Of a stretch of 64,000 nt of DNA, positions 21,271 through 44,632 are shown in pieces. Positions within the stretch are counted from its first letter, which is position 1, and every line of letters starts with the position of its first letter. Source of the stretch: an uncultured Syntrophaceae bacterium (GTDB lineage: Bacteria > Desulfobacterota > Syntrophia > Syntrophales > UBA2192). The stretch lies in assembly GCA_964628025.1 (NCBI GenBank), contig CAZVLL010000004.1, forward strand, positions 118,416 to 182,415, in the 5' to 3' direction. A program made the position numbers and the translations under genes. The notes beneath the pieces were generated by a model. It searched no databases. It was not told the origin of the DNA and was given only the letters and a program-made list of their open reading frames with translations.

Positions 21271-21357
21271 GACAATTTTGTTCATACACGCGAAGACCTC
21301 TTGTTTTTTGTGCCTATTTTCGCTATAGGAACAATTCTGTCATACGACAAGAATGTT
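21271..21357. promoter_or_regulatory. Three ACA-N4-TGT boxes around candidate sigma70 promoter of the activator gene
   Basis: GACAATTTTGTT 21271-21282, AACAATTCTGTC 21330-21341, GACAAGAATGTT 21346-21357; TTGTTT-N17-TATAGG 21301-21329. Confidence 0.55.
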
Positions 21358-21371
21358 CAACAGGATACGCC

Positions 21372-22898
21372 ATGAGCCGATTCAACTACGAGGAACTTGC
21401 CGCTCTGCATACCATCGCGAAAATTCTGACCCAGACCGGTGAGCTGCGCGAACAGCTTGACAAGATCATGATCGAACTGAGCAAGCGCCTCGGAATGGAA
21501 CGCGGAATGATCTCCATCCTGGATCAGAAAACAGGAGAGACCTGGCTGGAAGTGGCCCGCGGGGTCGATATCGAAGGCCTCGACATCAGCTACAAGCCAG
21601 GCGAGGGAATCACGGGCAAGGTCGCTCAGACAGGACGGCCCATGGCCATCGCAAACCTGGGCAAGGAGAACCTCTTCCTTGACCGCACCGGCGCCCGGAA
21701 GCACCTCGACCGTTCCCAGCTTGCGTTCCTCTGTGTCCCCATCATCTACAACGGGAAGGTTGCGGGCGTGCTGTCGGCCGACAAACTCACCCACAAGGTC
21801 ACAGACCTCGAGGAGGAGGTGGCCATTTTATCGGCCGTGGCAGATCTCATCGCCAAGGCCGTTCACGGGCTGGGACTGGAGGAGGAAAACCGGCGGCTGC
21901 GGAAGATGCTCAGCCATACGCGAACCATCTCCACGGACATCATCGGGAATTCCAAGCCCATGCTGGACGTGCTCAACCTGATTTCCCAGGTGGCCGACTC
22001 GGGCACGACGGTCCTCATCAACGGGGAGACCGGAACAGGAAAAGAACTCGTGGCGCGGGCGATCCACTCCAACAGTCCCCGCAAGAACGGCCCCTTCATC
22101 CAGGTCAACTGCGCCGCCATGCCCGATACGCTCATTGAAAGCGAACTCTTCGGTCATGAGAAAGGGGCCTTCACCGGAGCCATCCAGCGGCGCCGCGGTC
22201 TCTTCGAGGAGGCCCACGGCGGGACTATTTTCCTCGACGAGATCGGGGAGCTTTCCCCGGCGGCACAAGCCAAGGTGCTTCGCGTGCTTCAGGAAAAACA
22301 GCTCCAGCCGGTTGGTTCTTCACGGACGGTCACGGTGAATGTCCGTATCATTGCGGCTACGAACCGGATCCTGGAACAGGATGTGGCCGAGGGTCGTTTC
22401 CGTGCGGACCTCTACTACCGGCTCAACGTGTTTCCCATCTACATGCCGAATCTGCGGGAGCGGGGAAGCGACATCATCCTGCTGACGGATCACTTCATCG
22501 TGAAGTATGCCAAGATACTCGTGAAGCGCGTAAAGAGGATTTCCACACCGGCACTGGACATGCTTCTCGCGTACCATTGGCCCGGGAATGTCCGCGAGCT
22601 GGAAAACTGCATCGAACGGGCCGTGATCCTGGCCCCCGGTGATTCCATCGAAAGCCCCCACCTGCCACCGTCGCTTCAGTTGAAATCGAAAGAGGCGGCA
22701 AAGACGGAACGGGGCAAACTCGAAACCCTCGTCAGTGCCTACGAGCGATCCCTGATCATTGACGCGCTGAAAGACGCCCGCGGCAACCAGAGCAAAGCGG
22801 CAAAATTTCTGGGAACGACGAAACGGATTATCCAGTACAAAATCACGAAATACGCCATCGATCCCCAGCGTTTCAAATCCAAACGGATTGCATCCTAA
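21372..22898 (+). CDS. NifA-like sigma54-dependent transcriptional activator (GAF-AAA+-HTH)
   Basis: N-terminal GAF ([21 protein letters not shown]), [31 protein letters not shown], Fis-type HTH. Confidence 0.93.
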
Positions 22899-22938
22899 AG
22901 AGGGAGGATTCCACGTCGTGCCTAAACACTTAATCCGG

Positions 22939-23121
22939 TACATTTATGTAGCTGTTTCCTGCCGCTTCTATTCTTGAAATGCCCTCAGGCGGTCTTCTCT
23001 GAGCCCCCGGATTCTTCCCGACGTGAATATTTAAACCCCTCACATCAAGGAGTTAACAGCTGTTCTTGTCTTTTATCCGCAATGCTGCGGAACTGTGTTT
23101 CGAACGTGGCATGTTTTTTGA
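22939..23121 (+). promoter_or_regulatory. Box + IHF-like site + near-consensus sigma54 promoter upstream of HTH-only gene
   Basis: TACATTTATGTA 22939-22950; CATCAAGGAGTTA 23043-23055 (1 mismatch to WATCAANNNNTTR); TGGCATGTTTTTTGA 23107-23121 (GG-N10-GA, -12 imperfect). Confidence 0.5.
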
Positions 23122-23176
23122 CAATTCACGATACATAAGTTTTTCATTCCACAACAACCGGGCGGAGTGAAACATC

Positions 23177-23386
23177 ATGAACGTGGAAAAAATGGAGAGC
23201 AAAACAGTATCATCCCTAGCCAGTCTTATGAACGCTTATGAGCGTGCATTGATCATCGATGCGCTCGTAAGCACACTGGGAAATCAGAGTCAGGCGGCAA
23301 AACGGCTCGGCACATCCAAGAGGGTGATTCACTACAAGATACACAAATACGGGATCGACCCTCGCCGTTTCCGGATGGGCCTGTAG
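23177..23386 (+). CDS. Stand-alone Fis-type HTH protein, paralog of the upstream activator's DNA-binding domain
   Basis: SD GGAG; AYERALIIDAL....GNQSQAAKRLGTSKRVIHYKIHKYGIDP. Confidence 0.85.
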   Translation: MNVEKMESKTVSSLASLMNAYERALIIDALVSTLGNQSQAAKRLGTSKRVIHYKIHKYGIDPRRFRMGL

Positions 23387-23411: not shown

Positions 23412-23452
23412 TACATTATTGTACGTGGCATTTTGCGAAATACAATATTGTT
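23412..23452. promoter_or_regulatory. Paired ACA-N4-TGT boxes overlapping candidate sigma70 promoter of glutamate synthase operon
   Basis: TACATTATTGTA 23412-23423 and TACAATATTGTT 23441-23452; TTGTAC-N16-TACAAT 23419-23446. Confidence 0.6.
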
Positions 23453-23522: not shown

Positions 23523-24653
23523 ATGTGTCGACTTTTTTCCATCACAAGCGAACAGCCTCTTTCTCCTCTGATTGCCCTCGAGGCGCTCAACGTCATGAAG
23601 GAAGGCCACGATGGCTCCGGAGTCGGTCTTTACATGACCGATCTAGGCGGAGAATTCGCCGGCTACAAGCAATGCCCGATTCTTTCGGGGATCTTCACGA
23701 AAGAAGGAATGAAGAAGCTCAACGATTACATGACGGCCCGAGGCTTTGTCGCAAAGCACGAGGTCGTCATCCGGCCCTCCAAAACCCCTCCGACGGGGAC
23801 CCCGCGACGAGACGTATACCTGTTTGCAGTTTATGAGTACCCTGCCGAGTGGATGGATCTCAGCCGGGAAGAGCGATCGCTTCGCTTCATGGTCACCCGC
23901 GTCCAGTTGCGCCAGATGGGCCTGGAGGACGGCTCGATGATGGTCTTCAGCTTCTGGCCCGACGTGCTCATGCTCAAGGAGATCGGCGATCCCCTCGAGG
24001 TGGCCGATTACCTCGATCTCGACAGGCGGAACATCCTGGCCCGTAGCATGCTGGCCCAGGGCCGTCAAAACACGAACTACGCTATCACGCTGTATGCCTG
24101 CCACCCTTTTTTCATCCAGGGTATGGCGACCATGACCAACGGAGAGAACACGGCCTTCGTTCCGATTCGAGAGTTCCTCCTCTCAAGGAATTGCCCCGGC
24201 TACATCGGCTACCAGTCCGACTCGGAAGTGTTCACCCATATCATGCATTATACGCATTACAGGCTCGGCATGGGACTCGAGGCCTACAAACACATCATTA
24301 CCCCGTTGAAAGATGAAGAACTGAACAAACACCCCGACGGGAAGTGGCTTCGGCTGTTGAAGCATACCTGCCGTCCCCTCATCATCGACGGGCCCAACTG
24401 CGTCATCGGTTTTTTGCCCGACAAAACCATGTTTGTCGTTCAGGACAGCAAGAAACTCCGCCCCGGTATTATCGGCGGCAAACCGGGACTCTTCGCCGTT
24501 TCCTCGGAGATGTGCGGCCTCGATTACGTCATTCCCGACCGCGACAAGAGCCGGGATTTTCAGCCCATGAAATACGATGTCGCCAGTGTCGGTCCCGATC
24601 GTTCGGAGGTTAATGTATGGAATCAATGGGAACCCTTCACCCATCCACGCTGA
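23523..24653 (+). CDS. Glutamate synthase, glutamine amidotransferase (class II) subunit, GltB domain 1
   Basis: N-terminal Cys nucleophile (MCRLF), QGRQNTN, ACHPF, TNGEN, SDSEV, DGP, LRP. Confidence 0.88.
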   Translation: MCRLFSITSEQPLSPLIALEALNVMKEGHDGSGVGLYMTDLGGEFAGYKQCPILSGIFTKEGMKKLNDYMTARGFVAKHEVVIRPSKTPPTGTPRRDVYLFAVYEYPAEWMDLSREERSLRFMVTRVQLRQMGLEDGSMMVFSFWPDVLMLKEIGDPLEVADYLDLDRRNILARSMLAQGRQNTNYAITLYACHPFFIQGMATMTNGENTAFVPIREFLLSRNCPGYIGYQSDSEVFTHIMHYTHYRLGMGLEAYKHIITPLKDEELNKHPDGKWLRLLKHTCRPLIIDGPNCVIGFLPDKTMFVVQDSKKLRPGIIGGKPGLFAVSSEMCGLDYVIPDRDKSRDFQPMKYDVASVGPDRSEVNVWNQWEPFTHPR

Positions 24654-26251
24654 GCACCAAGGACCTGCGCTGGCGGATCCTCTGGAGCAAGGAAAAGTGC
24701 ACCCTCTGCGGCCGCTGTACGGCCGTCTGCCCCGTGCAGTCCATTGAGTTGGGCGTACATCGCAAACGAACGGTTTCCGTCCCCCTGGGAATCAAGGAAA
24801 CGCCGGGTGCGGCCTTTTCCGTGTATCATGGAATCGATCAAAGGACCGACCCAGCCTACGCCTGCATCGGCTGCGCCATGTGCAACCTCGTGTGTCCCAA
24901 CGAAGCCATCATTCCCGTGCAAAACGAGGAGATCGACAAGCAGCGGTTCCACATCAATACGGGCGGGATTCCCCGCAGGCGCGGCGGCCGTCGCAACAAC
25001 CCGGGAAGCCTGCTGGACCAGATCAAGTTCGTCCGCATCTCCATGCTGACCGACCCGGCCCTCGACGCCGGCCGCCACGAATTCGAACTGAGAACGCTTT
25101 TGGGCCGTATCCTTCCTGCCGAGGAGGCCCTGCAGTTCACCCGGGAAAATGGCTGGATCCCTCCTGTCCGCGAAATTTACCCGCTCATCATCGGGAGCAT
25201 GTCCTTCGGGGCGCTGTCCCCTACCATGTGGGAAGGGCTCCAGATGGGGGTGGCCTATCTCAACGAAGAGCTTAAAATGCCCGTGCGGATGTGCACCGGC
25301 GAGGGCGGCTGTCCCCCGAGGCTTTTGCGCTCACGCTTCATCAAGTACGTCATCCTCCAGATCGCCAGCGGCTACTTCGGCTGGGATGAGATCATCCACG
25401 CATTGCCCGAGATGAAGGAAGATCCCTGTGCAGTGGAAATCAAATACGGGCAGGGCGCCAAGCCCGGCGACGGGGGCCTGCTGATGTGGTACAAGGTCAA
25501 CAGCCTCATCGCCCGGGTTCGCGGCGTGCCGGCTGGCGTGAGCCTCCCCAGCCCGCCCACGCACCAGACAAAGTACTCCATTGAGGAGTCCGTGGCAAAG
25601 ATGATCCAGTCCATGTACATGGCCTGGGGGTTCCGCGTTCCCGTGTATCCCAAGATCTCCGCCACAAGCACCACCAATGCCGTGCTCAACAACCTGACCC
25701 GCAACCCCTACGCCGGAGGGCTCGCCATCGACGGAGAGGACGGCGGTACCGGGGCCGCGTACAACGTTTCCATGGATCACATGGGTTACCCCATCGCGAG
25801 CAATATCCGGGACGCCTACCTCAATCTGGTCAAAATCGGAAAGCAGAACGAAATCCCGCTCTTTGCCGCCGGCGGTATCGGAAAAAACGGGAACCTCGCC
25901 GCCAATGCCGCCGCCCTCATCATGCTGGGAGCAAGCGGCGTCCAGATCGGCAAATACGCCATGCAGGCGGCAGCGGGCTGCCTCGGCTCGGAGACGGACC
26001 GCTGCAATGTCTGCAACATCGGTCTTTGTCCGAAAGGAATCACCTCTCAAGATCCCCGCCTGTACCGGCGTCTTGATCCCGAGAAAGTGGCCGAGCGCCT
26101 CGTGGACATGGTTCTCAGTTTTGACACGGAACTGAGGAAGGTTGTTGCCCCCCTGGGCCGTTCCACCTCGCTGCCCATCGGTATGGCCGATGCCCTCGGG
26201 ATCGCCGACAAGGCGGCGGCGGAGCGGCTTCAGATCCAATACGTCGTGTAG
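24617..26251 (+). CDS. Glutamate synthase FMN-binding subunit with N-terminal 2x[4Fe-4S] domain (GltB domain 2)
   Basis: CTLCGRCTAVCP, CIGCAMCNLVCP, MSFGALS, TGEGG, EIKYGQGAKPGDGG, CNVCNIGLCPKGITSQ. Confidence 0.92.
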   Translation: MESMGTLHPSTLSTKDLRWRILWSKEKCTLCGRCTAVCPVQSIELGVHRKRTVSVPLGIKETPGAAFSVYHGIDQRTDPAYACIGCAMCNLVCPNEAIIPVQNEEIDKQRFHINTGGIPRRRGGRRNNPGSLLDQIKFVRISMLTDPALDAGRHEFELRTLLGRILPAEEALQFTRENGWIPPVREIYPLIIGSMSFGALSPTMWEGLQMGVAYLNEELKMPVRMCTGEGGCPPRLLRSRFIKYVILQIASGYFGWDEIIHALPEMKEDPCAVEIKYGQGAKPGDGGLLMWYKVNSLIARVRGVPAGVSLPSPPTHQTKYSIEESVAKMIQSMYMAWGFRVPVYPKISATSTTNAVLNNLTRNPYAGGLAIDGEDGGTGAAYNVSMDHMGYPIASNIRDAYLNLVKIGKQNEIPLFAAGGIGKNGNLAANAAALIMLGASGVQIGKYAMQAAAGCLGSETDRCNVCNIGLCPKGITSQDPRLYRRLDPEKVAERLVDMVLSFDTELRKVVAPLGRSTSLPIGMADALGIADKAAAERLQIQYVV

Positions 26252-26266
26252 CCGGAGAGAAAAACC

Positions 26267-28645
26267 GTGAGAGAAAAGAAGTCACCCAGGAAAAACGTCA
26301 GGACCAAGGAACCTACCCTTGTCGTCGAAGGGATGGTGAAGGGGCGGCGGATCGACTCGCGTGTCCTCGAAGAGCGTATGCAGAAGGCCGTGGAAGCCGG
26401 TCACCGCTCGATCGAGGTTCAGGCCTTCGGGCAGCACGGTATCGGGGGCAGGCTCTGGAAGGCGGGAAACGAAGCGCTCACGATCCGAATCAGCGGATCC
26501 CCCGGACAGCGTGTGGGTTCCATGGGATTTCCCAACACCTTCATCGAGGTCACGGGCCCTGCCTCCGACGACGTGGGCTGGCTGAACGCCGGCGCCACGA
26601 TTGTCGTGCACGGCCACGCCACCAACGGCTGCGGCAACGCCATGGCCCAGGGAAAGATTTTCGTGGCGGGCGATATCGGCGCCCGCGGCATGACCATGAC
26701 CAAGCACAACCCCCGGTTCGCCCCCCCTGAACTGTGGGTACTGGGCGGTGTCGGTGATTCCTTTGCCGAATTCATGGCAGGAGGCATCGCCGTCGTGTGC
26801 GGCCACGAGTCCCACCAGGCAGACAATGTTCTGGGCCACCGCCCCTGTGTAGGCATGGTGGGCGGGAAGATCTTCTTCCGCGGCCCCTACAAAGGCCACA
26901 GCGAGGAGGATGCCCGCCTCGATCCCGTTTCAGCCGCCGACTGGAAGTGGCTCAAGGCCGGCATGAAGGACTTTCTCCGCTCTATCGGGCGCGATGAACT
27001 CTACGAAAGCCTGACGGAAGATCCGGCCGTCTGGAAGCTCCTCTCGGCCCGCAAGCCCGGTGAGAAAGGCACGAAGGCCGTCCGCAAAATGGAAGACTTC
27101 CGCCGCTTCGTCTGGGACAGCGAACTCGGAAAGGGCGGGTTGATAGGGGATCTGACCGATATGGACCGAAGCCCGATCCCGGTCATCACAACGGGGACCC
27201 TCCGGCGTTTTGTCCCGGTCTGGGAGAACCTGAAATTCCTGCCGCCGTGCCAGGCCAGTTGCCCCACCGGGATCCCCGTGCAGAAGCGCTGGGAAATGGT
27301 GCGAAAGGGGCTCGTCGACGAGTCTGTCGACATCGCGCTGGCCTACACGCCATTCCCCGTCACGGTCTGCGGATACCTCTGCCCCAACGTCTGCATGCAG
27401 CACTGCACGCGGCAGATAGAAGGCATGAAGCCGGTGGACATCGCGGTTCTGGGCAAGGCAAGCCTCAAGGCGAAGCCGCCCGAGCCGGCACCGGCTTCGG
27501 GCTACAGGGTGGCCATTGTCGGCGGCGGGCCTGCAGGTCTCTCCATCGCCTGGCAGCTGTACCTGAAGGGCCATCAGCCCGTCGTCTTCGACCGGGGCGA
27601 GGAGCTGGGGGGAAAGATCACGAGTTCCATCCCCAGCCTGCGCATCCCCGACGAGATCGTCCGGCATGAAATCGATCGGGTGAAAGGACTCATCCCCAAG
27701 GTCCACACGAAGAAAGACCTGTCGAAAAAGGAGTTCACGAAACTTCGCGAAGAATACGACTACGTCGTCATCGCCACGGGGGCCCAGAAGCCGCGCATGC
27801 TCCCGATCCCCGGAATCGAGCGCGCCCTTCCGGCCCTCGAATTCCTGCGCGCCAGCAAGGAGAACCGCATCCGGGTCGGAACACGCGTCGTCGTCATCGG
27901 TGCGGGAAACGTGGGATGCGACGCGGCGGCGGAGGCAGCGCGGCTCGGCGCCATGGACATCACGCTTATCGACATCCAGGAGCCGGCCTCTTTCGGAAAG
28001 GAGCGCCAGCATGCCGAGGCAGCGGGGGCCAAGTTCCTCTGGCCTGTCGCCTCAAGGGCCATCACCGCGGAAGGCGTCGAGCTCTCGAAAGGAGATATCC
28101 TGCCCGCCGACACGGTCATCGTGGCCGTCGGCGACCAGCCCGACCTGGGCTTTGTTCCTGACAGCATCACCACGGACAGGGGATTCGTCGTCGTAAACGA
28201 GCATTTCCAGACAAGTGACCCCAAGGTCTTCGCCGTGGGCGACACGGTCAGGCTGGGGCTTCTCACAGAGGCCATCGGCGCAGGCCGAAGAGCCGCAGAG
28301 TCCATCGACGCTTTGCTCAAGGGTCGCGAACCGGCCCTCGACACGCTGCCGCCCATCCCCTCGGCCCGGATCAAGCTCGAATACTATGACCCGCGAGTCA
28401 AAGGCTTCGGGGATGTAGACGACTGCGCCGGCGAGTGCGCCTCCTGCGGCTCCTGCCGGGACTGCTCTGTGTGCGTCACCCTCTGCCCGCAGAATGCGAT
28501 CTCGCGCAAGGACCTGGGCGGCGGTGCCTACGAGTACACCGTGGACCCCGACCTGTGCATCGGCTGCGGCTTCTGCACGGGTGCCTGTCCCTGCGGGATC
28601 TGGCAACTGGTGGAGAATGTCCCGATCGACAGCGTCAATCAGTAA
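26267..28645 (+). CDS. Glutamate synthase GXGXG domain fused to GltD-like FAD/NAD(P)H oxidoreductase and ferredoxin domain
   Basis: GQHGIGG, AEFMAGG, PPCQASCPTG, VGGGPAG, VIGAGNVGCD, C-terminal CRDCSVC...CIGCGFCTGACPC. Confidence 0.88.
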   Translation: MREKKSPRKNVRTKEPTLVVEGMVKGRRIDSRVLEERMQKAVEAGHRSIEVQAFGQHGIGGRLWKAGNEALTIRISGSPGQRVGSMGFPNTFIEVTGPASDDVGWLNAGATIVVHGHATNGCGNAMAQGKIFVAGDIGARGMTMTKHNPRFAPPELWVLGGVGDSFAEFMAGGIAVVCGHESHQADNVLGHRPCVGMVGGKIFFRGPYKGHSEEDARLDPVSAADWKWLKAGMKDFLRSIGRDELYESLTEDPAVWKLLSARKPGEKGTKAVRKMEDFRRFVWDSELGKGGLIGDLTDMDRSPIPVITTGTLRRFVPVWENLKFLPPCQASCPTGIPVQKRWEMVRKGLVDESVDIALAYTPFPVTVCGYLCPNVCMQHCTRQIEGMKPVDIAVLGKASLKAKPPEPAPASGYRVAIVGGGPAGLSIAWQLYLKGHQPVVFDRGEELGGKITSSIPSLRIPDEIVRHEIDRVKGLIPKVHTKKDLSKKEFTKLREEYDYVVIATGAQKPRMLPIPGIERALPALEFLRASKENRIRVGTRVVVIGAGNVGCDAAAEAARLGAMDITLIDIQEPASFGKERQHAEAAGAKFLWPVASRAITAEGVELSKGDILPADTVIVAVGDQPDLGFVPDSITTDRGFVVVNEHFQTSDPKVFAVGDTVRLGLLTEAIGAGRRAAESIDALLKGREPALDTLPPIPSARIKLEYYDPRVKGFGDVDDCAGECASCGSCRDCSVCVTLCPQNAISRKDLGGGAYEYTVDPDLCIGCGFCTGACPCGIWQLVENVPIDSVNQ

Positions 28646-36339: not shown

Positions 36340-36451
36340 TACAACCTTGTACAACTATCCATTAATTATACAATTGTGTATATCTCATCGAACGATACCA
36401 TTTGGCATCTTATTGATATATTTCATGTTTTGTGGTGGCCGGGGAATTGCA
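36340..36451 (+). promoter_or_regulatory. Paired boxes plus sigma54 promoter of amtB-PII operon 1
   Basis: TACAACCTTGTA 36340-36351, TACAATTGTGTA 36369-36380; TGGCCGGGGAATTGCA 36436-36451 (GG-N10-GC). Confidence 0.7.
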
Positions 36452-36488
36452 ATCTGTTCTGTAATTCATGATTGGGGGACGGGACATC

Positions 36489-37715
36489 ATGGTTCATCAA
36501 ATCAACGCGGGCGATACAGCCTGGATTCTGGTCTGCTGTTCCCTTGTGCTGCTCATGACACCGGCACTGGCGCTGTTTTACGGCGGGATGGTGCGGCGGA
36601 AAAACGTTCTTTCCACATTGACGCTGAGCTACATCTTCATGGCCCTCATCGGGGTGCAATGGGTCGCTTACGGATACTCCCTTGCCTTCGGCACGTCCAT
36701 CCACGGATGGATCGGGGGCCTGAACTTCATCGGGTTTCAGGGGGTGGATGCCCTGCCCAATGCGGACTACAGCAAAACGATTCCTCATGGGCTCTTCGCC
36801 GCCTTCCAGATGATGTTTGCCGTTATCACGCCGGCCCTGATCACCGGCGCCTTCGTGGAGCGGGTCAAGTTCAAAGGCTTTCTGCTGTTCAGCCTGCTCT
36901 GGGCGACGCTCGTCTATGATCCCCTTTGCCATTGGGTCTGGGGTCAAGGCGGCTGGCTGAAAAACCTGGGGGTCCTTGATTTTGCGGGCGGGACGGTCGT
37001 GCACATCGCAGCCGGTTTTTCCGCCCTCGCATTTGCCCTGGTGATCGGGCCACGCAAGGGTTTCGGCAAGTCCCCCATGGAGCCGAATAATATCCCCCTG
37101 ACGGTTCTGGGGGCCGGACTGCTATGGGTGGGCTGGTTCGGCTTTAACGCAGGTTCTGCCCTGGCCGCTAACGGTGTGGCCGTCAATGCCCTTCTGACCA
37201 CGAACACCTCGGCGGCGACGGCCGGCCTGGTCTGGATGGTTCTCTCCTGGCTCGACGGTCGGCCCAGCACGTTGGGAATCGCAACAGGGATGGTGGTCGG
37301 CCTGGCGGCTGTGACCCCGGCTTCGGGTTACATCACGCCGATGGCATCCATGCTGGTCGGGGCCGTCGCGGCACCGCTGTCTTATTATGCGATGCGCTTC
37401 CGGGACCGCCGCAAACTCGATGAGTCCCTCGATGTATGGGCATGTCACGGAATTGCCAGCACGTGGGGCATGATCGCCGCCGGTCTTTTCGCAACCGTCT
37501 CCGTTAACAGCGACGGTGCCAACGGCCTGTTCTTCGGCAACCCCGGACAGATCGGGATCCAGATCCTGGCCATCGTCGTCACCATGGTCTTTTCATTCGG
37601 GATGACCTTTTTGCTGGCCAAGGCGCTCAACGCGAGTATCGGATTGCGGGTGAGTCCCATGGAGGAGGAGGTCGGACTGGATATCAGTTCCCACGGGGAA
37701 CGATCGTATTCATAA
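36489..37715 (+). CDS. amtB: Ammonium transporter 1
   Basis: LMTPALALFYGG, FQMMFA, DFAGGTVVH, GWFGFNAGS, DVWACHG, GLDISSHGE. Confidence 0.95.
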   Translation: MVHQINAGDTAWILVCCSLVLLMTPALALFYGGMVRRKNVLSTLTLSYIFMALIGVQWVAYGYSLAFGTSIHGWIGGLNFIGFQGVDALPNADYSKTIPHGLFAAFQMMFAVITPALITGAFVERVKFKGFLLFSLLWATLVYDPLCHWVWGQGGWLKNLGVLDFAGGTVVHIAAGFSALAFALVIGPRKGFGKSPMEPNNIPLTVLGAGLLWVGWFGFNAGSALAANGVAVNALLTTNTSAATAGLVWMVLSWLDGRPSTLGIATGMVVGLAAVTPASGYITPMASMLVGAVAAPLSYYAMRFRDRRKLDESLDVWACHGIASTWGMIAAGLFATVSVNSDGANGLFFGNPGQIGIQILAIVVTMVFSFGMTFLLAKALNASIGLRVSPMEEEVGLDISSHGERSYS

Positions 37716-41873: not shown

Positions 41874-42038
41874 ATCATTATTGTTGCATTTATATATAAT
41901 AAAGACAATAACGTGCTTTATAAATTATTAGTATACATTATTGTATGATTATTTTCATGACCCCGTCGGAGATTATCTTATTTATATGTATTATATTGAA
42001 TACTTACAATATATTTTTCCCCTGGCACTTTTATTGCT
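41874..42038 (+). promoter_or_regulatory. Three boxes at 30-bp period plus sigma54 promoter of amtB-PII operon 2
   Basis: ATCATTATTGTT 41874, GACAATAACGTG 41904, TACATTATTGTA 41934; CTGGCACTTTTATTGCT 42022-42038 (GG-N10-GC). Confidence 0.8.
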
Positions 42039-42086
42039 CAGTTGAATAGCAAGTATTTGACAATTCCATCACAGGAGGGCTTTATC

Positions 42087-43322
42087 ATGAATACGGGCGA
42101 TACTGCTTGGGTGCTCATGTCGTCTGCACTCGTTCTTCTCATGACTATCCCCGGTCTTGCTTTTTTCTACGGCGGACTCGTCAGGAGAAAAAATGTTCTT
42201 TCCATTCTGATGCAATGCCTGATTATTCTTTGCGTCATCACGCTCCAGTGGGTCCTCTACGGGTATTCCCTGACCTTCGGTCCCGACGCCTGGAACGGGA
42301 TCATCGGCGGGCTCGACTGGGCCGGGCTGCGCAATGTCGGCGGCCAGCCCAATACCGATTACGCCGCGACCATTCCGCACTATGCCTTCATGATCTTTCA
42401 GTGCATGTTCGCAGTCATCACGCCGGCGCTGATCATCGGAACCTTTGCCGAGCGGATCAAGTTCTCGGCATTTCTGCTCTTCACGATCCTCTGGGCGACC
42501 TTTGTCTATAATCCGCTCGGGCACTGGGTCTGGGGAATGGGAGGATGGCTTCGGGATCTGGGGGCTCTCGACTTCGCAGGGGGCATCGTGGTTCACACCA
42601 GCTCGGGCGTATCGGCTCTTGTCCTGGCGCTCCTCATCGGAAAGAGGATCGGATTCGACAAAAGGGCCTTCACACCGCACAACCTGCCCTTCACGGTCAT
42701 GGGGGGCGCGCTGCTCTGGTTCGGATGGTTCGGGTTCAATGCAGGCAGCGCTTTGGCGGCCAATGAACTCGCGGCCAATGCCTTCGTTACAACTACCGTC
42801 GCGGCCTCCGCTGCAGGATTGACCTGGGCCATTATTGAATGGTTTAAGCACAAGGCTCCCACTGCCCTCGGCGCCATTTCAGGCGCAGTGGCGGGACTCG
42901 TCGCCATCACACCGGCCTGCGGGTTTGTAAACCCAATGAATGCCATCTTCATCGGGTTGCTCGCCAGTTTCTTCTGCTATTTCGCCATTGCGAAGGTGAA
43001 AGCCTTCTTCAAATATGACGACTCTCTCGATGTATTCGGCATCCACGGCGTCGGCGGCATCTGGGGAACTCTCGCCACGGGCCTGTTCGCGGAGAAGGCC
43101 GTCAACGAGGCCGGCGCCAACGGGTTGCTGTTCGGCAATGCGCAGCTTTTCTTCGTCCAGTGTCTTCTCGTTGTGGTGACCATCGCTTTCGCGGCGGTCA
43201 TGACCTGGATCATTTTCAAACTCGTCGACGCGTTGATGTGTGTCCGGGTGGAAAAGACCAAAGAGATTGTCGGTCTGGACCTTACCCAGCACAGCGAGTC
43301 GGCATACACCCTGGTCGACTAG
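42087..43322 (+). CDS. amtB: Ammonium transporter 2
   Basis: SD AGGAGG; PGLAFFYGG, FQCMFA, DFAGGIVVH, GWFGFNAGS, DDSLDVFGIHG. Confidence 0.95.
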   Translation: MNTGDTAWVLMSSALVLLMTIPGLAFFYGGLVRRKNVLSILMQCLIILCVITLQWVLYGYSLTFGPDAWNGIIGGLDWAGLRNVGGQPNTDYAATIPHYAFMIFQCMFAVITPALIIGTFAERIKFSAFLLFTILWATFVYNPLGHWVWGMGGWLRDLGALDFAGGIVVHTSSGVSALVLALLIGKRIGFDKRAFTPHNLPFTVMGGALLWFGWFGFNAGSALAANELAANAFVTTTVAASAAGLTWAIIEWFKHKAPTALGAISGAVAGLVAITPACGFVNPMNAIFIGLLASFFCYFAIAKVKAFFKYDDSLDVFGIHGVGGIWGTLATGLFAEKAVNEAGANGLLFGNAQLFFVQCLLVVVTIAFAAVMTWIIFKLVDALMCVRVEKTKEIVGLDLTQHSESAYTLVD

Positions 43323-43334
43323 GAGGCGCTCATC

Positions 43335-43676
43335 ATGAAATATATCATTGCCATCATCAAACCGCACAAACTGGACGACGTGATGAATGCGCTCGAAGAG
43401 GTCAACGTGAACCTGATGACCGTTTCCAACGTGCTTGGCCGGGGACGGCAGATGGGCATTACAGAGGTCTATCGGGGCGCCAAGGAAGTGGGGAGTCTCC
43501 TCAAGAAGGTAAAACTTGAAATCGCCGTCAACGAAGATTTTGTGGAGCCCACCATCCAGGCCCTTAGCAAGGGAGCCCGCACAGGCGAGATCGGAGACGG
43601 GAAAATCTTTGTTCTGGACCTTCCCGACGTCATCCGGATCCGCACCGGCGAACGCGGCGGGCCGGCGATCGGGTAA
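43335..43676 (+). CDS. glnK: PII nitrogen regulatory protein 2
   Basis: [41 protein letters not shown]. Confidence 0.92.
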
Positions 43677-43858
43677 AAAAACGGCATCGGGCGACGGGCT
43701 TCCGGTATCAGGAAATGAATGAGTCCCCTATCTTTTTTCTCTGATGCTTGTTGCCCGGCGCCTGAGGCCTTGATCCCTCAGGTCCTGTCATGAAGACAGA
43801 ACATGAAAAAAACCCTTGAATTCATCTTGCACGGGGATCCGGGTGCGATCACTCAGGA

Positions 43859-43994
43859 TACATATTGGTACACCACCCATGATAGTGATACATTATCGTA
43901 TCGCACACAGACGTCCTTGCCACGTCCGCTGCACGCATTAACCTTATCATATTCGTATCTTACATATTTTCTTATCATTGGCATCCGAATTGCT
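43859..43994 (+). promoter_or_regulatory. Paired boxes plus sigma54 promoter upstream of DapB-like gene
   Basis: TACATATTGGTA 43859-43870, TACATTATCGTA 43889-43900; TTGGCATCCGAATTGCT 43978-43994 (GG-N10-GC). Confidence 0.75.
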
Positions 43995-44025
43995 GCATGA
44001 TCAATTCGATACCGGGAGGTATTGT

Positions 44026-44073
44026 ATGCACATCCTGCTTTGCTGTTGCTTTATGATTGTGAGACAATGTTAG
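44026..44073 (+). other. Candidate 15-aa Cys-rich leader ORF (MHILLCCCFMIVRQC)
   Basis: GGGAGGT 5 nt before ATG 44026, TAG 44071-44073. Confidence 0.3.
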
Positions 44074-44098
44074 GTGAGCATAATGGCGGGAGAAAACC

Positions 44099-44632
44099 AT
44101 GGTGAGGGCTGTCGTAACAGGCGTGAGCACCAAGATGGGCAGCAGACTCATGCAGCTCGTCTATGAAACGGATGGCATCGAACTCGTCGGGGCCGTGGAC
44201 AGCCGCGAAAGCCGTTATGTAGGCCAGGATGCCGGCGAGATCAATCAGCTGGGGTTTTTTGGTGTGCCCGTCGTCGATGACCTTCGGGATTGCATCAAGC
44301 ACAGCTGTGTGGTCATCGACTTTACGGAAAAGGAATCTTCCCTGACCCACCTCAAAATCGCTGCCGAGCACAAGACGTCGATGGTGATGGGAACCATGGG
44401 ATTCATGCTCGACGAAATGGACCGCATCCGCGAGCTGACCAAAAAGACTCGCTGCGTTCTCGTGCCCAATGTAAGCCCCGCTCTTTTCAGCGAGATGGGA
44501 GCGGGCGTAGAGCTGATTTACCGCTCCTTTATCCGGGACACTTTCGCACGGGAGGCCATCGCCGCCGCGAAATGGATCGTGAAGCAGAAGAATGGGCTGT
44601 ACGACATGCAGGACGTCCTCGGACTGAAATAA
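44099..44632 (+). CDS. DapB (dihydrodipicolinate reductase)-derived protein lacking the substrate-binding/catalytic domain
   Basis: DapB N-domain (VGQDAGE, VIDFT, GTMG, PNVS) joined in frame to DapB C-terminal tail (RDTFAR..IAAAKW....NGLYDMQDVLGL); no HHxxK.DAPSGTA motif. Confidence 0.8.
   Translation: MVRAVVTGVSTKMGSRLMQLVYETDGIELVGAVDSRESRYVGQDAGEINQLGFFGVPVVDDLRDCIKHSCVVIDFTEKESSLTHLKIAAEHKTSMVMGTMGFMLDEMDRIRELTKKTRCVLVPNVSPALFSEMGAGVELIYRSFIRDTFAREAIAAAKWIVKQKNGLYDMQDVLGLK

Follow-up and report, generated by a model that had tools for sequence, protein, structure and literature searches.

What can a free-standing copy of an activator's DNA-binding domain do beside its parent gene? The question is raised by a locus of an uncultured Syntrophaceae bacterium (contig CAZVLL010000004.1), which we analyzed within a window of 64,000 nucleotides (nt), the whole stretch to which the positions below refer. 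A gene for an enhancer-binding protein (EBP; 21372–22898, forward strand, 508 amino acids [aa]) is followed, 278 bp from its 3′ end, by a small gene (23177–23386, forward strand) that encodes a stand-alone HTH_8 protein of 69 aa. The initial annotation had proposed that the two form a candidate pair of activator and anti-activator. We find that the small gene is unambiguously under purifying selection and that, in this genome, it most likely heads the operon of a split glutamate synthase (glt); on the evidence of sequence, its product probably tunes the output of the EBP, damping being the most likely effect.

The description of the activator as a protein made of GAF, AAA+ (with GAFTGA) and helix-turn-helix (HTH) parts agrees both with Pfam, which places a GAF domain at residues 25–164, Sigma54_activat at 190–356 (PF00158, E 2.6e-73), AAA_lid_14, and HTH_8 at 458–494, and with the translation, in which the GAFTGA and Walker A motifs are legible. 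Its sensor part is a GAF domain, with no receiver domain as in NtrC. The term "NifA-like" holds for this architecture only, because the match to the NifA model TIGR01817 of NCBIfam (497.6 bits) stays under the cut-off of 528.85. The small gene is, as had been described, an intact open reading frame (ORF) with its own Shine–Dalgarno (SD) sequence, GGAG at 23164–23167 of the forward strand, 9 nt ahead of the ATG. Its product was said to have neither ATPase nor sensor domain, and Pfam indeed reports HTH_8 (PF02954; residues 22–58, 39.5 bits against a cut-off of 22) and HTH_50, with no Sigma54_activat/AAA+ domain and no GAFTGA loop; for the known anti-activator families NifL, PspA, HrpV and FleN, the Pfam and NCBIfam scans gave HTH_8-type matches only. 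The similarity to the C-terminal domain of the EBP, put by hand alignment at 33/46 identical residues (about 72%), is close, and BLASTP counts it as 35 identities (66%) and 44 positives in 53 positions against EBP residues 450–502 (E 1e-22). Four further matches in the genome of origin, each the HTH_8 end of a long open frame, do not exceed 36% identity to the small protein. In an AlphaFold2 model of the small protein (mean pLDDT 86), residues 1–13 are unstructured and a long helix (14–32) precedes the helix-turn-helix (37–44 and 48–58) and a short C-terminal turn. The nearest structures in the PDB are the EBP DNA-binding domain 2m8g, Fis (residues 44–97) and the DNA-binding domains of NtrC4 and NtrC1; the match to the Fis and NtrC4 domains has a TM-score of 0.63–0.71 and a root mean square deviation of about 1 Å over 47–52 residues, with Foldseek E-values that are weak (at least 0.028), the domain being small.

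Conservation and dN/dS (the ratio of nonsynonymous to synonymous substitution rates) had been named beforehand as the checks on the small gene, and both came out in its favor. In a comparison set of 40 related genomes, a stand-alone ortholog was found in 15 of the 17 other genomes of the genus (82–91% identity, open frames of 71–118 aa) and in three of the four genomes of a sister genus (70–76% identity), giving 16 genus loci, this genome included, and 3 sister-genus loci, 19 together. The gene is unassessable in G003 (genus), where the contig stops 359 bp past the EBP gene and glt begins on another contig. Two genomes, G017 of the genus (100% complete) and G018 of the sister genus (99% complete), lack three genes at once, namely the first glt gene, the small gene and the EBP ortholog, their best EBP match being 49–50% identical; in G003 and G009, two genus genomes that have an EBP ortholog, its identity is 90–91%. 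The 69-codon frame, with its ATG at the identical position, is kept in all 16 genus loci. Nei–Gojobori estimates over 120 pairs gave a median dS of 0.91, so that synonymous sites are near saturation and the ratios approximate: the median dN/dS was 0.097 for the whole small gene (116 usable pairs), 0.013 for the 47-codon HTH core (113 pairs) and 0.26 for the first 20 codons (105 pairs), far from neutrality. This analysis refutes the reading of the gene as a miscalled ORF or as the non-functional remnant of a partial tandem duplication, which its shortness and its derivation from the 3′ end of the neighboring gene might suggest. Besides a ratio of about 0.10 overall, the genus has kept its ATG, SD and promoter, its ORF is intact in two genera, and 55 close database relatives are nearly all 69–113 aa long, and we give that reading almost no credence.

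At the nucleotide level, the small gene and the EBP domain are 62% identical, third positions agree in 17 of 53 codons, and the identical residues use the same codon in 13 of 35 cases. So few shared codons and third positions indicate that the duplication is old and that the similarity of the proteins has been held by constraint. Gene conversion or co-evolution of an interface, considered on account of a shared "YER" in helix 1, was dropped, since EBPs from other orders have YER or FER as well and synonymous sites have reached saturation. A tree of 37 distinct 52-residue domains recovered five clades (glt-linked small proteins of the genus, those of the sister genus, the amt-linked small proteins described below, the EBPs of the genus, and other EBPs) without resolving the order among them. 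It fits both an origin of the glt-linked small gene directly from the EBP gene and an origin via the amt-linked small gene.

How is the small gene expressed? The box, IHF-like site and sigma54 promoter that had been claimed upstream of it are all present. The palindromic box U (TACATTTATGTA, 22939–22950) lies about 165 bp ahead of the −24 element of a sigma54-type promoter (TGGCATGTTTTTTGA, 23107–23121, forward strand), and between the two stands CATCAAGGAGTTA (23043–23055, forward strand), which we take to be an IHF-like site. Judged by TGGCAC-N5-TTGC, with 10 bases between GG and GC, the promoter was rightly called near-consensus for its −24 element and spacing; its −12 element reads TTGA, with GA instead of GC, and so departs from the consensus at the most conserved −12 base. 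All 19 loci have TGGCA-N6-TTG at the corresponding position. In the alignment of the 16 genus loci, conservation is confined to islands, namely the box core, the sigma54 element, the purine-rich SD block (GGGGTG in most rows) and the ATG, in a spacer that has otherwise diverged; the ACA and TGT cores of box U are invariant in 16 of 16, and the IHF-like site is partly conserved. From this conserved promoter and its upstream box of the regulon type we infer, on sound grounds, that transcription of the small gene depends on the EBP, as the initial annotation had supposed. Just 5′ of the promoter, a terminator-like hairpin (23076–23091; six pairs, four of them GC, with a weak T tail) could shield the small gene from EBP transcripts; the number of such hairpins is not above the expectation from shuffled sequence.

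The box is not an isolated motif. The window has five copies of TACA-N4-TGTA where 0.05 would be expected, a count that none of 100 shuffles reached; they stand 5′ of the small gene, 3′ of it, twice ahead of amt1 (29 bp apart) and once ahead of amt2. Relaxed motif scans added the box B, the boxes of the EBP gene, the dapB box and the pair on contig C3 that are given below. The spacer between the small gene and glt holds a tandem, boxes A (23412–23423) and B (TACAATATTGTT, 23441–23452), 29 bp apart from center to center; tandem boxes follow the small gene in all 19 loci, with a spacing of 29 bp in the genus and of 31–32 bp in the sister genus. Spanning the tandem from the right half of A to the left half of B, TTGTAC-16 nt-TACAAT (23419–23446) is a weak sigma70-like match (3/6 and 5/6 bases) that the promoter scan did not report; binding to boxes A and B might then repress a basal glt promoter.

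Downstream of the tandem, the split glutamate synthase genes (23523–28645, forward strand) encode proteins of 376, 544 and 792 aa. For the first of them (23523–24653), Pfam and NCBIfam gave no match at the thresholds applied; its product carries an N-terminal MCRLF, kept in all relatives, and is presumably the amidotransferase subunit. A glt-proximal sigma54 promoter (TGGCAC-N5-TTGA or TCGA) is found in 6 of the 16 genus loci (L009, L010, L012, L013, L018 and L021) and in all 3 sister-genus loci. It is gone from the other 10 genus loci, including that of this genome, where no TGGCA-N6-TNG occurs between 23387 and 23522, and in these loci the spacer has shrunk to 132–189 bp. With this promoter lost, the small gene appears as the first gene of the glutamate synthase operon, with the tandem enhancer inside the presumed transcript, and the arrangement of the sequence makes it most likely that the small gene heads the operon in this genome. 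It lies directly upstream of glt in all 19 loci, and in two of the three sister-genus loci inspected the EBP gene is located elsewhere and not upstream. The small gene is more tightly tied to the glt operon than to the EBP gene, which corrects the picture first drawn.

The history of the locus can be approached through 10 loci from other families of the order. In seven of them, glt comes directly after the EBP gene and the small gene is missing from the spacer, which in every case holds one or more ACA-N4-TGT boxes; three have clean tandem pairs 30–31 bp apart, two more a pair with a degenerate second box (by eye), and six a sigma54 promoter ahead of glt (by eye). In four of these genomes (G023, G027, G030 and G036, 88–100% complete), a stand-alone HTH_8 relative was not detected at E ≤ 1e-6. 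Because these outgroups carry boxes without the small gene, and because the recognition helix of the EBP is nearly constant (TTKRI[IVT]QYKI in 20 of 21 aligned EBP domains, the remaining row having two conservative changes), the boxes are most simply the enhancers of the EBP and older than the small gene. The ancestral order would thus have been EBP gene, tandem enhancer, sigma54 promoter and glt, and in one family a copy of the 3′ end of the EBP gene, accompanied by one box and a sigma54 promoter of its own, would have come between the EBP gene and the tandem enhancer.

Which genes does the EBP then control? At the small gene, amt1, amt2 and dapB, boxes precede the sigma54 promoter by 67–170 bp. 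On the forward strand, the amt1 region (36340–37715) has boxes at 36340–36351 and 36369–36380, 29 bp apart, a sigma54-like element TGGCCGGGGAATTGC at 36436–36450 and the amt1 ORF at 36468–37715; the amt2–glnK region (41934–43676) has a box at 41934–41945, a consensus sigma54 promoter at 42023–42037, amt2 at 42087–43322 and the PII gene glnK at 43335–43676; and the dapB region (43889–44632) has a degenerate box TACATTATCGTA at 43889–43900, a consensus sigma54 promoter at 43979–43993 and dapB at 44099–44632. The dapB box has one mismatch and stands 90 bp ahead of its promoter; as box and promoter are at the same place in relatives, lysine/diaminopimelate synthesis seems to be part of the same regulon. 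Elsewhere in the genome, tandem boxes lie 113–143 bp ahead of a sigma54 promoter (TGGCACGAGCCTTGT; G000:C3:135731-135939), followed by a 295-aa ORF that is likely a further member. Three ACA-N4-TGT boxes 5′ of the EBP gene (21271–21358, forward strand; cores at 21272, 21331 and 21347) are candidate autoregulation sites, and boxes occur 44–97 bp ahead of the first start codon of the EBP frame in the outgroup loci L025, L026, L030 and L035. Six other low-GC ACA-N4-TGT hits whose surroundings were inspected (on C18, C11, two on C2, C10 and C7:62291) stand near neither a sigma54 promoter nor any gene evidently concerned with nitrogen; since these six look like chance occurrences, the idea of a second box class, or of targets without sigma54 promoters, was set aside. 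The genes 3′ of the glutamate synthase genes are glnA, carAB, purF and amt1, and gdhA was not found in the genome with GdhA of G018 as the query.

The predicted regulon would therefore comprise the EBP gene, the small gene with the split glutamate synthase, two amt genes, glnK and dapB, that is, functions of ammonium uptake and assimilation and not of nitrogen fixation. This agrees with the earlier assignment of the targets, and the absence of nif genes reported for the window extends to nifH across the genome (98.9% complete), in which the best match reaches 44.6 bits against a cut-off of 394. The NtrC cut-off (TIGR01818, 558.6 bits) is reached by none of the 19 EBP-type loci of the genome, the best scoring 470.5. 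We take the EBP to be the likely regulator of ammonium assimilation in this clade. A second GAF-type EBP, 63–68% identical to that of the window, was observed in both genus relatives examined, G009 (full length at G009:C5:424856-426370) and G003 (on two contigs, G003:C126 and G003:C52); no such paralog was seen in the genome of origin.

How far do such small genes extend? In a search of one representative for each of 185,579 species, the glt-linked form made up 16 of the best 80 loci, all labeled Syntrophales, Syntrophaceae, Syntrophobacterales or (delta)proteobacterial metagenome-assembled genomes. All 64 others of these 80 loci are EBP genes: 60 lie in open frames that reach or exceed about 500 aa, and a contig end truncates the remaining 4. 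Synteny of EBP gene and glt recurs in 10 further loci, several labeled Desulfomonilia, and full-length EBP relatives occur widely, in Syntrophobacteraceae, Desulfacinum and other groups. A word-index search returned the 55 close database relatives mentioned above, all but one of which have PF02954; their source names are "helix-turn-helix domain-containing", "hypothetical" or, where a name was transferred, "Nif-specific regulatory protein". An HMMER search of 1.84 billion representatives returned 854 matches at E ≤ 0.001. Among the best 150 of these, 40 are no longer than 90 aa, many with a plausible start and a short leader, although some may be fragments, which suggests that stand-alone HTH_8 proteins are common as a class. 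The best HMMER matches also include very long proteins with five to eight separate HTH_8-like stretches, P0056 (7571 aa), P0077 (4930 aa), P0092 and P0192.

Closer to the locus, a second type of stand-alone HTH_8 protein (65–80 aa, 50–57% identical to that of the window) is encoded just 3′ of amt-glnK or amt. It occurs in 8 of the 17 genus relatives (e.g., L036:3965-4192, L037:3887-4225, L038:4129-4326 on the reverse strand, and L044:3714-4157) and in single genomes of several other families (L039, L040, L041 and L042). The genome of origin lacks it, and in the window the spacer between glnK and dapB (43677–44098) holds no remnant of it in six frames. As judged from these sequences, domain-only paralogs inside nitrogen operons are recurrent in this order. 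The only other HTH_8 match in a small open frame of the genome of origin (G000:C14:17360-17701, reverse strand) is a protein of about 94 aa with an N-terminal extension and a helix, LGINRNTFQKKM, that recalls Fis. It may be a Fis-like protein of the nucleoid type, in which case a general nucleoid role need not fall to the small gene.

What, then, would the small protein do? In the mechanism that we propose, the EBP would sense nitrogen status, bind ACA-N4-TGT enhancers and activate the sigma54 promoters of the small gene with the glutamate synthase operon, of the two amt genes, and of glnK and dapB. The small protein, predicted to be dimeric and to combine the fold of the EBP domain with most of its DNA-facing residues, would occupy the same or overlapping boxes without activating, and such a competitor at the enhancer would both damp and stabilize EBP-dependent transcription through negative feedback. 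Because its promoter would belong to the EBP-activated set, the small protein should be made in proportion to the output of the regulon; as the probable product of the first gene of a strongly expressed operon, and with a good SD, it should be more abundant than the EBP once the regulon is switched on; and because it has no AAA+ domain and no GAFTGA loop, it cannot activate the sigma54 RNA polymerase. The joint loss of the EBP gene, small gene and first glt gene from G017 and G018 is the behavior of a module and counts in favor of this proposal. So do the residues invariant in the alignments of both EBP domains and small proteins (E, R, GNQ, AA, LG, R and K), with a tyrosine of the recognition helix near-invariant in the small proteins; binding to the boxes is predicted for the EBP and for the small protein, and for the latter the shared DNA-facing residues speak indirectly in favor of the EBP's boxes and a fixed difference described below against them. 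We tentatively adopt the reading that the small protein is induced by the EBP, binds its enhancers but is unable to activate, and so feeds back negatively; our confidence in it is somewhat short of even.

Several observations weigh against it. In the promoter of the small gene, TGGCA-N6-TTG is followed by T at 15 loci, by A in this genome and by G at the remaining three, and at none of the 19 by the consensus C; conservation of this deviation in all of them argues for function, not for a canonical promoter. One position of the recognition helix, which aligns with R89 of Fis, is Q in 21 of 21 EBP domains and H in 33 of 33 small proteins, and at the end of helix 1 the small proteins have an invariant V for the K of the EBP consensus; these differences could alter specificity or affinity. 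Across the genus both recognition helices are constant, a Y/F exchange in the small protein excepted, and neither alignments nor box tables contain a co-variation of box and protein that would tell which of the two reads the boxes. The recognition helices of the amt-linked small proteins are far more diverged, which suggests that domain-only proteins of this clade can gain targets of their own. Finally, the negative sign of the effect is a guess, as a helper that bends DNA fits the same architecture.

The fixed differences and the diverged amt-linked helices make a specificity of its own possible for the small protein. Like Nac, it could then be an EBP-induced coupler that, under nitrogen limitation, represses or activates other promoters by its own sequence preference, those of the sigma70 type included, and so widens the regulon past the sigma54 promoters. 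Both the Q-to-H and K-to-V changes and the strongly diverged recognition helices of proteins encoded beside amt-glnK fit such a role, as would repression of a basal promoter formed by the sigma70-like hexamers in boxes A and B. Yet the −35 hexamer of the latter matches in only 3 of 6 bases and the promoter scan is silent on it, most DNA-facing residues are still common to the small protein and the EBP, and no second motif class was recognized, the low-GC ACA-N4-TGT sites (with an AT-rich spacer) including sites of the sigma54 regulon. We regard this alternative as unlikely.

The sign of the effect would be reversed if the small protein were an architectural co-activator, a dimer that, like Fis or IHF, bends DNA or fills enhancers and so eases assembly of the EBP hexamer or looping, giving positive feedback. 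Its fold is that of both Fis and EBP DNA-binding domains, and where the glt-proximal promoter has been lost, a single box stands upstream and the tandem pair lies about 300 bp downstream of the remaining promoter, an arrangement in which looping may need help. An IHF-like site, however, already stands between box and promoter, outgroups run enhancer, promoter and glt without any small gene, the separate Fis-like protein is encoded elsewhere in the genome, and we found no precedent in the full-text literature. We therefore doubt that the small protein acts in this way, and retain the enhancer competitor as our preferred reading.

Set beside known systems, this enhancer competitor has partial counterparts. 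Fis of Gamma- and Betaproteobacteria is likewise a stand-alone dimeric HTH_8 protein, for which descent from the C-terminal domain of an EBP of the NtrC type has been proposed; the small protein matches its residues 44–97 in sequence and model. Fis proper has about 98 aa, with an N-terminal β-hairpin arm and helix A ahead of the EBP-homologous region. In contrast, the small protein has 69 aa and lacks roughly the first 40 residues of Fis, its gene adjoins in the studied locus that of an EBP to which it is 66% identical, stands under a sigma54 promoter in a nitrogen regulon, and is restricted to one family of Syntrophales. Laboratory-made C-terminal domains of NifA and NtrC are also DNA-binding domains without the AAA+ module, and that of NifA reportedly binds the enhancer and cannot activate; the small gene differs from them in being natural, separate and selected, with its own regulated promoter. 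Nac of enteric bacteria, a LysR-type protein, is transcribed from a sigma54 promoter under NtrC and in turn acts on other nitrogen genes; it resembles the small protein as an ATPase-less regulator of nitrogen control made from a sigma54 promoter. Nac, however, is unrelated to its inducer, whereas the small protein is a paralog of its inducer's DNA-binding domain. To our knowledge, all known anti-activators of sigma54 EBPs act on the ATPase domain. The small protein would share with NifL, PspA, HrpV and FleN the lowering of EBP output and a gene beside or within the regulon, but these are unrelated in sequence and contact the AAA+ domain, whereas its own target would be the DNA or the DNA-binding domain; PspA–PspF is mentioned in PMC4641369. 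FleT/FleQ and other truncated EBPs similarly lack one module and work with a full-length partner; they keep AAA+ and miss the DNA-binding domain, the reverse of the truncation seen here (EBP types without a DNA-binding or sensor domain are listed in PMC3162934).

MicroProteins, as described in PMC9638782, are small single-domain paralogs of transcription factors, often induced by them and exerting negative feedback. The concept, known there from plants, offers a further alternative to competition at the enhancer, in which the small protein would heterodimerize through helix 1 with the EBP domain and leave too few ATPase subunits on the enhancer. Helix 1 is nearly identical in the small protein (AYERALIIDAL) and the EBP; in the sister genus, however, the two read DYERALIIDAL and AQERSMIIDAL, respectively, so that the interface is not identical everywhere, and we consider such poisoning of subunits quite improbable. 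A complex prediction for the C-terminal 78 residues of the EBP and the small protein scored 0.42, and one unrelated control scored 0.64, so that the score counts neither for nor against contact. MicroProteins of plants and animals, such as LITTLE ZIPPER and Id, usually keep the dimerization domain without DNA binding, whereas the small protein keeps the DNA-binding domain. A bacterial case of the microProtein type for sigma54 was not found in the literature searched, nor is a gene for an EBP DNA-binding domain alone, under control of the EBP, described in the full-text literature (supplements and subscription journals lay outside the scope of this search).

What is known already, then, is the HTH_8 family and the proposal that Fis descends from an EBP domain. 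What appears to be new, as far as the literature searched can tell, is a selected domain-only paralog beside its parent EBP, placed under the parent's enhancer and a sigma54 promoter and heading a target operon. It may be a natural "enhancer decoy", in which an EBP induces a copy of its own DNA-binding domain that competes with or poisons the activator at shared enhancers; we consider this conceivable, though clearly short of an even chance. If so, it would represent a new class of anti-activation for EBPs, a bacterial counterpart of the eukaryotic microProteins and a living intermediate on the proposed route from NtrC to Fis. More generally, a selected domain-only paralog controlled by the activator would add control at the enhancer itself, and the locus would provide a testable example of a Fis-like global DNA-binding protein born from the C-terminus of an activator inside the regulon of its parent. 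This genome has no NtrC or NifA equivalog at the curated cut-off, and the analysis defines the likely master regulator of ammonium assimilation in Syntrophales together with its enhancer motif (ACA-N4-TGT, often in tandem about 30 bp apart) and its regulon.

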